From positions 2,880,001 through 2,944,000 of the forward strand of contig CM000207.1 in assembly GCA_000002445.1 (NCBI GenBank): 64,000 nucleotides of DNA, written 5' to 3'. The DNA comes from Trypanosoma brucei (Eukaryota). Position numbers: made by a program. Shown here in pieces: positions 60,421-64,000 of the stretch (position 1 is its first letter; each line of letters opens with the position of its first letter).

Positions 60421-63400
60421 ATGCTTTTATACACGTATATATGTGTTTGTGAGATTGTGAAGGGATCTCGCAGGCATCGTGAGGGAAGTATGGGGTAGTA
60501 CGAGAGGAACTCCCATGCCGTGCCTCTGGTTTCTGGAGTTTGTCGAAGGGCAAGTGCTCCGACGCTATCGCACGGTGGTTCTCGCCTGAACGCCTCTAAG
60601 CCAGAAACTAGTCACAAGACCGGGTGCCCGTAAAAGCAAAAAGCAAAAAGAGAAAGAATAGGGAAAAATATAGTGTACATGTAAAGTGCGTTCCATATAT
60701 ATATATATATATATACATACTCATTTATATAAGTGTGTGGGCACGGCTTGTGTGTATCTCTATATGGCTCACTGACGTTGAAGGGAATGCAAAAGTGTAT
60801 AATAACACTACATATGCGTGTGTATGTGTGTATATTACTTTGTATTTCTGTGTGAGACGTGTTTTATGTGCGGGCATATACGTATATAAATGCTCTTTAT
60901 ACCTCCGTCTCTTCCAGTTGGCTGTTCACGCTCAAGAAAAAAAAAACATATTCGAAACGAATATTATCTCGAATCGCCACTTCTCTTATCTGGTGGGCTC
61001 TGCCCGCCATTGTCGGCGCCAAGTACCTTCATTTTCACAAGATCTGTTTTGAACGCGTTGAACAAAAAACAAAAGCAACGGAGGAATTTCATTACTTATA
61101 AAATATATGTAATGATGCGGAGGTGTGAGAGGTATTATGTTATGCTTGCATCAACAATGCGCATGCATATTCACTCTATGTGTGTGTATGTTTTTGTCTG
61201 TATTGTTGCGCGTCACACTGTGTGGCACTATATATACATATATTAGGCAATGTTCCAATTATTTTTTGGTGCATTGTGTTGCTATGTTTGTGTAAGTGCC
61301 ACCAACTCTGTGAACCAAACCTATCTCTCTGTATATATTTATATACAATATAATAATATTTTGTCCCTCTCCAAACGAGAGTACATGCATGGACTGGCAT
61401 GAGCGGCACGCTCCACGACCGTGGGGCTCGAGGGGCACTTTACGTCCCGAGGCGCTGAACCTTGATGCTTGGAATTTCATGCTCAGGGACTTTTGAAGAA
61501 GTCATATATGTGTGCTTGTATATGTGTATGTGTGTTGTGTTACGTTGCGTCGAGATGTTGGGGCCGCATTCTCTACTATGTTTGTAGTCTCCTATATTGC
61601 ATCACGTTGTGACGGGAAGCGTGTTATTGGATGTGTGTGTATGGTCACTCGGATATTCTGCTATGCCGCAATCGTTCCATGGAAGAATAAAATTAATAGC
61701 ATGACATTGTGTTTTATAATAATATATTCTGTAAGCCTTTATTTTTTGCGAGATTCCCATTTACATATGAGTCTGTGTGCTGATTTCTGGAGAGTTGTCA
61801 TTAATACACACCAGCTCATCTCATCATAGTCTGAAAAAGCCTTACTCTATTATATATACATGGATTTGGCCTAACAGAGAATGAAAACACAGATCCTGTT
61901 GTATATAACATCCAATATGTCCAAGAGCCAAGGGTACATTTATTTATTGATGTTTACATAGATCCCATATTTGTCGCACTGGAGTTTATGCTCTTGATAT
62001 CACAATATATTATATGCTGAGGGGAGAGCTTGCACACGTATGGGGAATTTATAGGAATATTATAATAAGCTCCTTTGTGTTTGCCGCTTTTCTAGAAATG
62101 TGAAAATAATGCAAACTGTATATTTTGTGGCTGTGAAGGTTTGTTGTAATATATCGACATAGTTTTCCCCTGTACATACTAATAATATACCATGAGGCGT
62201 TATGTGCACAATATGGGAAGTGTGGCTACTGTATATGTTAGTTTTTAAATCTTCCTTCGGATGAAACACTAGTGTCACACCTCTCCTTCTCACATCATAT
62301 GTATGTGCTTCGCCTCACATTATTACTCCATACCATCGTGGTCTATTGGAAGAAATGATGTGGAATGATAGATTGGGTGAAAAACGAAAAGATCAGAAAG
62401 GCATGACTATCTTTCTCTAGTGTGTGGTGTACGCTGTTGATGCTTTGAAAGTTCTGCATCATCAAGTGATATCATATACCCGTATGCTGCGCTTGTGCAT
62501 ACGTATGTGTATATATTTTCTTTGATACATTCTCGGCGTAATGGAGAGTGTGTCCATGTCAGTTATTTTTTGTTTCGTTGACGAACTTACACACTTCAAT
62601 GCGAATATCCATCATTTTACACATGATGTAGTCGCTTAGCCCTATGCTAGGTGCGTGTGGTTGGTAAAAGATTAAGAAGAGAGAGGGTCTAAACAATATG
62701 TTAGAGGCTCGAAAGTAATGTTCAATTCAAAAGGATTTGGTTCTTTCCTTTCATCCCCTTCAAACTTTTTATTGCTACTGAACAAGAGGTTTTGATGGTG
62801 CATAAATGCGAACACTTAGTTCCTACCGTCGTACATGTTTTTTTTTTGGAAAAGTATAGACTGTTGTGTCAAAATACACGCATGTTCTGCGAGTAAGGAG
62901 AAACTCACGGTTATTGATGAAGTAAATGCGATTGGGCACAAAAATGAAAATTCCTCTATTCAATATACGCTTGTGGTTGTGAATTCCCATTATCGACATT
63001 GGAACTTCGAATGTCCTCGGCATGCTGTTGCAAGTTGTTTTAGTGAAGCGGCGTGTCAGCACCTGTTTTGTATTTTTTATTATTAATCACTTGGACTCGC
63101 TCAGCGTCTGACAAAGCGCTAGACTTCGCTTCTTTATTTTACGTGTCGCTGCTCTAATGTCTATGTTTAATATATGTTTATATATCAACATGTTTATTCA
63201 TTTAAATATTTTTGAGCGTTTAGGCATGTTGCAGGGTAAAAGTAACCTCATACAGTGGCTACTGGATTTGGCTATTCGATGTGGTTGTTGGAATTGGAAG
63301 TGTCTCCATATCTTTCGTTCCACCGAGAGGTAGAGTGCCATCATCCCCCTTCAAAAGCTCATATTTATGCAGTCTAGAAAATATGTTGAGGAAAAGAGTA

Positions 63401-64000
63401 TATCAATACACAAATGTCACGACATACACACTATTCATTTGGTATCTGTATTCAAGAAATGAAATGATTAAGACCGTGGCTTATAGTTCTCTGTTTTGGA
63501 GAGCTCTTTATATACATATATATATTTTGTGGACAAAAGAACTAACGTAATTGTGTGACCTTTCCGGGCATACATAACAGGAAGTTGATGGAAGCGGTTG
63601 CGTATCGCTCTACTCAGTGGTGAGTGCTGCTTTGGTGCGCAGTTACAACCTATCACCTATTATTATCACTATTATAGAAATAAATCACTCCTAATATTCA
63701 TAAAATAAACAACATGATCCAAAGTAGCGAATGTTCCAAAGGGCACTCATTTTCATACCCTATCACCATACCACTTCTCACCCACAGTCACTATTATACA
63801 CAATTCACTAAAATTTTCGTATTTTTCGAGTTTCTCAACCTTTCATAATTTTCATCAGAAAATGTTAAAATATAGCAAATTTTAAAAAATCCTTAGAATA
63901 CTAAAATGCTAACCAACTCATAAAAGCAGAAGAAGTAATCAAAGCGAATTTTTCATTTAGAATAATTCTGGAATATTTGCCTTTAATCCATCAACAGACA

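Follow-up and report, generated by a model that had tools for sequence, protein, structure and literature searches.

Sequence evidence for a promoter-less rDNA 3′ end within a split 70-bp repeat of a silent VSG array in Trypanosoma brucei

Analysis of a 64-kb window of Trypanosoma brucei DNA (the window being the whole stretch of 64,000 nucleotides under study) identifies positions 60418-63639, on the grounds of sequence comparison, as the 3′ end of a T. brucei rDNA unit on the + strand, 5′-truncated, 3.2 kb long and without a promoter. One 70-bp repeat unit is split by the insert, which leaves the (TAA)138 tract at 60004-60417 on its left and the GT-rich core at 63640-63690 on its right. Most probably the insert is what remains, in slightly decayed form, of a DNA-break repair event, and it is itself almost certainly inert; its presence in a 70-bp repeat is unusual, yet it is no new type of element.

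Results

Organization of the insert

The features of the insert and of the DNA on either side are listed below, in window coordinates.

57434-58840, - strand: VSG pseudogene, b-type, in three frame-shifted pieces (ORFs, Pfam VSG_B); its cassette lies downstream of the split repeat
59925-60003, - strand: complete 70-bp unit ('unit 2'), with exact matches to the GT core and the AAGAGCAGTAATA motif
60004-60417, - strand: (TAA)138 tract of the split 70-bp unit, (TTA)n on the + strand (TRF period 3/6, 98% matches)
60418-60448, + strand: left junction and diverged ITS5 tail, canonical ITS5 from about 107 to its end (last ~30 nt)
60449-60631 (ends approximate), + strand: srRNA2 copy, LSU helices H94-H97 including the sarcin-ricin loop (Rfam 95.6 bits)
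60632-60966, + strand: ITS6 (ITS6(5-24) primer exact)
60967-61044, + strand: srRNA6 copy, srRNA3 in ribosome-structure nomenclature (both published primers exact)
61045-61358, + strand: ITS7, 314 nt (two published primers exact, at 61109-61128 and 61298-61316)
61359-61494, + strand: srRNA4 copy, 136 nt, the LSU 3′ end (three published primers exact)
61495-62227, + strand: 3′ETS/proximal intergenic spacer, at least 733 nt, colinear with primers to nominal position 602
62228-63639, + strand: remaining insert, non-coding, presumed intergenic spacer (composition, GC skew)
63640-63690, - strand: first part of the split 70-bp unit ('unit 1'), (TAA)n-GATAGG-TTGTaAcTG core, ending at about 63640
63691-64000, - strand: 3′ flank and 3′UTR of the next VSG, the gene of which leaves the window; conserved 16-mer at 63862-63877

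Read along the + strand, i.e. antisense to the silent VSGs on both sides, the insert passes from an ITS5 tail through srRNA2, ITS6, srRNA6, ITS7, srRNA4 and the 3′ETS into 1.4 kb of non-coding DNA, with the three srRNA genes occupying its first 1.08 kb in canonical order. Sixteen published T. brucei rDNA primers, extending from ITS5 to 3′ETS position 602, map colinearly on this strand, ten of them exactly; both the primers and the rDNA numbering are those of Chikne 2019 (PMC6411936, Table S1). The parts, their order and their orientation are the same as in the canonical T. brucei rDNA 3′ module (LSU-beta - ITS5 - srRNA2 - ITS6 - srRNA6 - ITS7 - srRNA4 - 3′ETS), and ITS7 (314 nt) and srRNA4 (136 nt) have the lengths given by the published numbering; the insert differs from the canonical module in being cut inside ITS5 and in having neither LSU-beta nor anything upstream of it, including the promoter. 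The 5′ and 3′ limits of srRNA2 were set by a conserved block starting at 60451 and by the ITS6(5-24) primer at 60636-60655, respectively. At the left end of the insert the ITS5(107-127) primer maps to 60420-60438 with four edits, and the alignment with T. cruzi begins at 60429; the mid-ITS6 primer maps to 60762-60782 with one substitution and a diverged tail, and the 3′ETS of the copy is offset by 131 nt with respect to the published positions.

The order and orientation of srRNA2, srRNA6 and srRNA4 are shared with the rDNA loci of T. vivax, T. cruzi and three further trypanosomatids (L001, L002 and L003), as compared by BLASTN; metagenome/Logan contigs are among these five loci. At the DNA level the srRNA2 copy is 90-94% identical to srRNA2 at all five, the srRNA6 copy 77-86% to T. 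cruzi and L002, and the srRNA4 copy 85-91% to T. vivax, T. cruzi, L001 and L003. A search with six-frame translations of srRNA2 returned only matches from trypanosomatids other than T. brucei, which are informative on identity and order, but not on the spacers. The Rfam model LSU_rRNA_eukarya matches 60473-60862 on the + strand (95.6 bits, E=1.4e-22, model positions 3007-3399), with high posterior probability only as far as about 60630, i.e. over helices H94-H97 (model 3007 to ~3150). The match was not recovered in an Rfam scan of the whole window, because of speed filters, and srRNA4 submitted to Rfam alone gave no LSU match. Within srRNA2, the sarcin-ricin loop AGTACGAGAGGAAC is at 60497-60510 and the motif CTGAACGCCTCTAAGCCAGAAAC at 60586-60608.

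These results bear out the preliminary description in its assignment of LSU rRNA domain VI to the DNA after the (TTA)n block, for which it had itself suggested an Rfam search, and in its placing of the sarcin-ricin loop. The second LSU motif that it gave as 60585-60608 is present, though its start was one base off, and its second rRNA-like GC island (61383-61500) is indeed rRNA, namely srRNA4, with somewhat different limits. The description of the rest as some 3 kb of spacer-like DNA does not do justice to a segment with three srRNA genes, and srRNA6 had been missed.

We presume that the final part of the insert (62228-63639) is rDNA intergenic spacer running on from the 3′ETS. Its composition (A.271, C.174, G.210, T.346) is like that of the mapped 3′ETS, and a positive GC skew continues unbroken through the insert to 63650, with its sign flipping at both borders. 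Neither Pfam matches nor protein homologues were found in 62228-63639. A chimeric query assembled from 11 ORF translations spanning 60859-63656 had zero homologues among 5.8 billion proteins, a result to be read with the observation that all matches in the other two protein searches were of at least 160 aa, such that the database may omit short ORFs. No exact-protein records were found for the ORFs at 60624-61052, 60890-61246, 61259-61480 and 61176-61409.

Absence of the rest of the rDNA unit

Some 35 primers for SSU, 5.8S, LSU-alpha, srRNA1, LSU-beta and the 5′ETS were mapped, and none has a site in the 64-kb window, from which the promoter-core and spacer qPCR primers of Stanne & Rudenko are also absent; for the promoter-core primers and seven 5′ETS primers the absence holds at up to 4-5 edits. 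Whole T. vivax and L001 rDNA units used as BLAST queries against the window matched the three srRNAs and nothing else. Upstream of the srRNA2 copy lie (TTA)138 and a 70-bp unit, in the place where intact units have the LSU body directly. Compared with a functional rDNA unit, the locus possesses srRNA2 with its sarcin-ricin loop and the srRNA2-srRNA6-srRNA4 order, but not LSU-beta and the upstream genes, the Pol I promoter or the 5′ETS. Its properties are those of a dispersed rDNA fragment, in that it is rDNA-derived, truncated and located outside a complete unit, with VSG cassettes on either side. There is no second copy of the insert within the window, and a metagenome scan with an ITS7 20-mer gave one chance match only, in an unrelated contig (L007).

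Divergence from published rDNA

The divergence of the copy was measured against published T. brucei primers, and the differences could in part be strain or inter-unit polymorphism, rather than decay. A G-to-C change at 60585 sets the srRNA2 copy apart from both the published T. brucei primer and five other trypanosomatids; it breaks a pair of H97, which cmscan marks as non-canonical, and is alone among the differences in being at an otherwise invariant position. The srRNA2 copy also has a C-to-G change at 60548. The 3′ETS has 7 substitutions per 100 primer nt (~7%), mostly G:C to A:T. At the start of ITS6 and in srRNA6, ITS7 and srRNA4 every primer matches exactly; the exactness of this central part implies that the copy is therefore young or partly homogenised.

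The host site

Unit 1 was delimited by a MAFFT alignment with five other cassette junctions and by comparison with the intact units at 32.6 and 36.0 kb. In the intact units of the window the GT core joins a long TAA tract directly, whereas here 3.22 kb separates the two, with a loss of at most ~20 nt of the 70-bp unit relative to those at 32.6 and 36.0 kb. The neighbouring cassettes both keep their normal spacing. The distance from unit 1 to the 3′UTR 16-mer of the next VSG is 172 nt, compared with 174 and 177 nt in ordinary cassettes; on the other side, unit 2 is followed by a co-transposed region of ~1 kb and then by the VSG pseudogene, the nearest database VSG to which is 80% identical. The target is otherwise intact and its flanks rebuild one 70-bp unit with little loss, as is characteristic of capture at a break. 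We considered the (TTA)138 tract as a part of the insert, and rejected this because equally long TAA tracts occur inside uninterrupted 70-bp repeats, at 32623-33473 and 36069-36803. No VSG Pfam match, protein homologue or 3′UTR 16-mer was found within 60.4-63.6 kb, and the window has no N runs. Elsewhere in the array, an intact VSG ORF at 37678-39288 has no exact-protein record.

At the left junction, the first 11 nt past the TTA tract (60420-60430, AATGCTTTTAT) are ambiguous in that they may be assigned either to ITS5 (AATGCTGTTAT) or to the 70-bp repeat (ACTGCTCTTAT), two sequences that are themselves identical at nine of 11 positions. The junction 11-mer matches ITS5 at 10/11 and the repeat motif at 9/11, a comparison that covers the left junction. 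With up to two mismatches, ACTGCTCTTAT is found at only three positions in the 3.2-kb insert, one of which coincides exactly with 60420-60430; the odds of such a junction similarity by chance in AT-rich sequence are roughly 1 in 100 to 1 in 1000. Assignment of the whole of 60420-60438 to the 70-bp repeat was rejected, since ITS5 is the better fit over the 19 nt and the ambiguity is confined to the first 11.

The host site had been described in preliminary form as a VSG cassette slot, bounded by two 70-bp blocks and held everywhere else in the window by a VSG. Repeat sequence does lie on both sides, but the pieces are halves of one unit, not two; with one split unit, normal distances and no sign of a VSG having been replaced, the anatomy speaks against the cassette-slot reading, and what occupies the corresponding position elsewhere in the window is the uninterrupted interior of a 70-bp repeat. 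The related suggestion of capture mediated by 70-bp repeats can be retained without the slot, in so far as a left junction in an 11-nt patch resembling both ITS5 and the repeat fits repeat-associated capture. The alternative of an array that ends against a truncated rDNA unit can be dismissed, there being VSG cassettes to the left and right of the fragment in one gap-free window. The proposed link with Pol I biology is speculation, the fragment being without promoter, 5′ETS, SSU or LSU body and antisense to silent VSGs.

Discussion

Origin of the insert

The locus is, we think probably, an inert rDNA orphon that was captured at a broken 70-bp repeat, break repair having joined or copied rDNA, with later neutral drift. 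On this account the 70-bp repeat, a sequence considered prone to breakage, would have undergone a double-strand break where its TAA tract and GT core meet. Repair would then have copied in or ligated a piece of rDNA, through microhomology-mediated joining or synthesis primed on short homology. The resemblance of ITS5 to the repeat over 11 nt may have determined one of the two ends, and the copy would since then have been drifting as functionless, neutral DNA. In T. brucei, homologous recombination (HR) and microhomology joining are the dominant modes of break repair, NHEJ was not detected, and the 70-bp repeats are rich in microhomologies (Glover 2008, PMC2377438); HR, ectopic HR and microhomology joining were reported in that work, but captured inserts were not.

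Four other explanations were weighed against capture at a break. An RNA-mediated origin, in which the cDNA of a pre-rRNA intermediate containing srRNA2, srRNA6 and srRNA4 was made by the reverse transcriptase of a retroelement (ingi) and then entered a broken 70-bp repeat by insertion or capture, is unlikely. The 5′ boundary of the insert does lie within ITS5, a spacer where pre-rRNA is cut, the cleavage parting the 3.9-kb LSU precursor from srRNA2, srRNA4 and srRNA6 (PMC6411936); the spacers are kept, as they would be in a precursor, and two ingi elements encoding reverse transcriptase are present in the window. The coincidence at the 5′ end is, however, resolved only to the same ~137-nt ITS5 spacer, and the 5′ truncation, a property of retroposed pseudogenes, is equally expected from DNA capture. 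Inspection of 63560-63645 and 60405-60425 revealed no target-site duplication, there is no poly(A) or A-rich tail at 63560-63639, and the block reaches 2.1 kb beyond srRNA4, whereas transcripts are documented to ~600 nt of the 3′ETS (PMC6411936). It is quite improbable that an rDNA unit formerly stood here and was overwritten, all but its 3′ end, by VSG cassettes via 70-bp-repeat recombination. Repeat sequence borders the fragment on both sides, and subtelomeric arrays are in general highly recombinogenic. The two flanks nevertheless fit as one unit at the canonical distance from the 3′UTR, in register with a second unit and its co-transposed region, such that two independent invasions would need to match by chance, and the rDNA runs antisense to the cassettes to its left and right, which are in one and the same orientation.

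The left junction is at 414 bp of pure (TTA)n, a classic spot for mis-assembly, from which it might be argued that genuine rDNA reads were mis-joined into the array via (TTA)n or TG-rich low complexity. We regard such a chimera as very unlikely: it needs two false joins 3.2 kb apart, the right one outside low-complexity sequence; the flanks rebuild one 70-bp unit; and the several differences from published rDNA, including that at the invariant srRNA2 site, are unexpected in reads from a functional unit. Finally, the exact match of srRNA6 and srRNA4 to all published primers, together with the use of Pol I by both rDNA and VSG expression sites, might be taken to favour expression of the srRNA copies, or a role in Pol I biology or as a chromatin boundary of the array. 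Any such function is extremely improbable, with the promoter, 5′ETS and upstream rRNA genes all absent, a pair-breaking change in H97 of srRNA2, and a single copy in the window, placed within a silent array and in the orientation opposite to that of the VSGs.

Capture at a broken repeat, the explanation that we favour, can be extended, albeit to a proposal that we consider rather doubtful, viz. that breakage between the GT core and (TAA)n affects the 70-bp repeats of silent internal arrays, and not only those of expression sites, and that such breaks can be healed by microhomology-primed copying of nucleolar rDNA, with the present locus being a natural footprint of the process. If this is so, either silent subtelomeric arrays touch rDNA physically or a pool of free rDNA fragments exists. 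Because a 70-bp half-unit persists upstream of the insert, gene conversion that begins in this half-unit and carries the insert would then be possible, and could bring the antisense srRNA module along with the downstream VSG into an active expression site.

Comparison with known systems

rDNA orphons, or dispersed rDNA pseudogene fragments, occur outside rDNA arrays in other eukaryotes. Like these, the insert is truncated, promoter-less, slightly diverged and situated among repeats close to the end of a chromosome; unlike them, it has a VSG 70-bp repeat as its host site and the fragmented kinetoplastid LSU 3′ module as its donor. Zomerdijk, in 1992, reportedly described the promoter end of an rDNA unit displaced to a telomere in T. 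brucei; the present insert is likewise a displaced part of rDNA, but it is the 3′ end, is promoter-less and lies in an internal silent array. Searching the literature for rDNA fragments in the subtelomeres of T. brucei brought up no specific report. In yeast and mammals, double-strand breaks under repair can capture ectopic DNA, including mitochondrial DNA, retroelement cDNA and rDNA, and the insert resembles such captures in being kilobase-scale and unrelated to its break-prone target, with little target loss and possible junction microhomology; for T. brucei, the literature consulted documents no captures of this kind. Similarity also exists with the ingi/RIME insertions in VSG arrays, in that several kb of non-VSG DNA interrupt the array, and two ingi copies are present in the window itself; the insert differs in having no RT or endonuclease ORF, poly(A) tail or target-site duplication.

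Significance

If capture is the right reading, the locus provides a dated, sequence-resolved scar that records where a 70-bp repeat broke, i.e. at the TAA tract boundary, and how it was healed. The gain of 3.2 kb of ectopic DNA with the target almost wholly kept is relevant to models of VSG archive rearrangement. There is also a practical warning in that an ordinary Rfam scan of a whole contig overlooks an LSU fragment scoring 95.6 bits, so that the annotation of trypanosome subtelomeres may be missing partial copies of rDNA. Studies of rRNA variants or modifications could be contaminated by reads from such copies. Variants specific to this copy, e.g. 60585C, are usable as markers of array evolution between strains.

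Identity and extent of the rDNA fragment

The segment at 60418-63639 (+) carries the 3' end of an rDNA unit and lies within a 70-bp repeat. The sarcin-ricin loop motif of the preliminary description is present at 60497-60510, and the second rRNA motif quoted there, CTGAACGCCTCTAAGCCAGAAAC, lies at 60586-60608. An Rfam scan restricted to 59800-64000 bore out the proposed LSU rRNA identity, giving an LSU_rRNA_eukarya match (95.6 bits, E=1.4e-22; + strand, from 60473) that is confidently aligned over helices H94-H97, to ~60630, and poorly past that point. The match was absent from scans of the whole 64-kb window, in gathering and E-value modes alike. 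The gathering threshold of the LSU model is 50 bits, compared with 95.6 for the fragment, which was detected only with ~4 kb scanned; the loss of the match in whole-window scans is a filter effect, and such rDNA fragments would escape standard annotation. srRNA4 by itself received no Rfam score.

Primers of Chikne et al. 2019 (PMC6411936, Table S1) served as T. brucei rDNA sequence tags; 16 are colinear on the + strand of the insert, 10 of them exact. The comparison rDNA loci, reached via spurious ORFs over srRNA2, were from T. vivax (L004, L005), T. cruzi (L006) and other trypanosomatids (L001-L003), and by BLASTN the order and orientation of srRNA2-srRNA6-srRNA4 are identical in every one.

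rDNA features of the insert
60420-60438, +, ITS5(107-127) primer match
60445/51-60630, +, srRNA2, BLASTN 90-94% to T. vivax, T. cruzi and L001-L003 rDNA
60573-60589, +, srRNA2 primer match
60636-60655, +, ITS6(5-24) primer match
60762-60782, +, mid-ITS6 primer match
60966-61042, +, srRNA6, BLASTN 77-86% to comparison trypanosomatid rDNA
60967-61044, +, srRNA6 primer tag matches
61109-61128 and 61298-61316, +, ITS7 primer matches
61359-61494, +, srRNA4 primer tag matches
61363-61491, +, srRNA4, BLASTN 85-91% to comparison trypanosomatid rDNA
61495, +, 3'ETS position 1, primer match
61643, +, 3'ETS position 149, primer match
62021, +, 3'ETS position 396, primer match
62115, +, 3'ETS position 489, primer match
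62208-62227, +, 3'ETS positions 583-602, primer match

Together, the colinear primers and the BLASTN matches to trypanosomatid rDNA identify what had been described as spacer-like DNA with a second GC island as three srRNA genes, the spacers ITS6 and ITS7, and then 3'ETS; the GC island is srRNA4. The 3'ETS primers labelled 396-602 fall 131 nt farther downstream than in the published numbering, with 1-20 and 149-168 in register; this offset (61663-62020) is due either to a 131-nt insertion here or to inconsistent numbering in the source table. In ITS7, whose length here is 314 nt, the primer labelled '294-314' maps at 254-272. L001 (ENA ERZ22147071 ctg25975c, 1-16578) is a metagenome contig of tandem trypanosomatid rDNA units with a 9,633-bp period, whose srRNA2 copies (6260-6439 and 15893-16072) are 93% identical to that of the window.

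Primers for SSU, 5.8S, LSU-alpha, srRNA1, LSU-beta and 5'ETS have no site in the whole window at <=4 edits, qPCR primers for the rDNA promoter-core, 18S, 28S-alpha and 'rDNA spacer' (PMC8034637 supplement) did not map in the window, and BLAST of complete T. vivax and L001 rDNA units against the whole window returned nothing beyond the three srRNAs. Whereas intact rDNA units have the LSU body directly upstream of srRNA2, the fragment has (TTA)138 there instead. The distal part, 62228-63639, has no Pfam domain, protein homologue or second copy in the window. Its base composition is near-identical to that of the mapped 3'ETS, and GC skew stays positive, as on the rDNA sense strand, as far as ~63650, where it gives way to the array's strongly negative values; we infer that this part is probably more rDNA intergenic spacer.

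Site and junctions of the fragment

When six minus-strand cassettes are aligned across the boundary between VSG 3'UTR and 70-bp repeat, 63640-63690 proves to be the normal beginning of a 70-bp unit, (TAA)n-GATAGG-TTGTaAcTG; its distance from the conserved 16-mer of the 3'UTR is 172 nt (174 and 177 nt in ordinary cassettes). Two 70-bp repeats that precede plus-strand VSGs, normal in other respects, contain very long and almost pure (TAA)n tracts, at 32623-33473 (~283 copies) and 36069-36803 (~245 copies), and were used as uninterrupted controls; long tracts of this type at 70-bp repeats are already known (references 18 and 19 cited in PMC4858185). In the controls, at 32.6 and 36.0 kb, the GT core passes through ATATACGAATA into the TAA tract with no gap. 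At the rDNA locus the GT core ends at ~63640 and is followed by the 3.22-kb rDNA block, then by (TAA)138 at 60004-60417, beyond which are a complete second 70-bp unit (59925-60003), a ~1 kb co-transposed region and a VSG pseudogene (57434-58840). Compared with the uninterrupted units, this layout implies that the fragment splits a single 70-bp unit, of which no more than ~20 nt has been lost. The proposal that rDNA occupies a VSG cassette slot is therefore not sustained, and no trace of VSG replacement was seen.

The 11 nt that directly follow the TTA tract at the left junction, AATGCTTTTAT, agree at 10 of 11 positions with canonical ITS5, AATGCTGTTAT, and at 9 of 11 with the repeat's own post-TTA motif, ACTGCTCTTAT, to which only three positions in the 3.2-kb insert are equally close; this suggests that the left join may have arisen at a short patch of similarity. 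The 70-bp motif itself (59955-59967) matches T. brucei ITS5 107-117 (published primer) at 9 of 11 positions, a likeness that could reflect either chance or a recurrent rDNA/70-bp recombination hotspot. Neither insert end has a poly(A) tail or target-site duplication.

Divergence of the copy

The srRNA2 H94 differences from other species are compensatory, and thus represent ordinary species-level covariation. A G-to-C change at 60585 sets the copy apart from the published T. brucei primer as well as from each of the five other trypanosomatids, and turns an H97 G-C pair into C·C, marked non-canonical by cmscan. In comparison with other trypanosomatids, 60548 (C-to-G) and srRNA4 positions 61393, 61466 and 61469 have window-only states at otherwise invariant columns. 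The 3'ETS primer sites carry 7 substitutions/100 nt, mostly G:C to A:T, whereas the primer sites at the ITS6 start and in srRNA6, ITS7 and srRNA4 show no difference from the published sequences; the copy is thus mildly and unevenly diverged. Strain polymorphism could account for part of this divergence.

Probable origin of the fragment

The best-supported reading is that a break in the 70-bp repeat was repaired with rDNA capture, with both the break itself and the mode of rDNA copying presumed. The break would have occurred at the TAA/GT-core boundary, and the broken repeat would have been repaired by capture of rDNA sequence. Break repair in T. brucei is dominated by HR and microhomology-mediated joining, with NHEJ not detected, and microhomology is abundant in 70-bp repeats (Glover et al., PMC2377438).

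RNA-mediated capture of a srRNA2-6-4 processing intermediate is in keeping with ITS5 being a cleavage spacer of pre-rRNA, but is unlikely given an insert with neither A-tail nor target-site duplication. That the fragment is the remnant of an rDNA unit overrun by VSG cassettes is less probable again, because the flanks fit together as a single 70-bp unit. An assembly chimera would require two joins 3.2 kb apart and would have to accommodate the copy-specific variants, and we consider it very improbable; a functional element, which would be promoterless, antisense and with a broken srRNA2 pair, is scarcely credible.

In the literature searched, nothing was found on rDNA fragments within VSG arrays of T. 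brucei, and the database of the source genome may already have an annotation for the locus. As a precedent, an rDNA promoter displaced onto a minichromosome has been cited. Other eukaryotes provide familiar examples both of dispersed rDNA fragments and of DNA captured at breaks.

Array setting

The window is a silent VSG array of T. brucei type, with VSG_B, Trypan_glycop or VSG C-terminal domains in ORFs throughout (Pfam, 64 kb) and zero Ns. In the intervals 3-20 kb and 55-64 kb the VSGs are minus-strand; in 28-43 kb they are plus-strand.

Retroelements of the array
21418-26672, ingi-type non-LTR retroelement, 5.25 kb (RVT_1, RNase_H, endonuclease)
48956-54204, ingi-type non-LTR retroelement, 5.25 kb (RVT_1, RNase_H, endonuclease)

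The ingi elements share 96% identity and a common orientation, and a 940-aa ORF in each encodes RT / RNase H / endonuclease; the plus-strand VSG block lies between them, such that VSG orientation changes at or near each.

Among the ORFs examined, the sole complete VSG noticed is at 37678-39288 (+; 536 aa), with VSG_B and C-terminal domains, a signal peptide and a GPI-anchor-like tail; a contig index look-up returned no record of the exact protein. The remaining VSGs are mostly fragments or pseudogenes. ORFs 13795-14925 (-; 376 aa) and 17824-19152 (-; 442 aa), for which Pfam gives nothing at E<=0.01, are located in cassette positions with 70-bp repeats upstream (17409-17481 and 20864-20970), and may be divergent VSGs or VSG-related genes.
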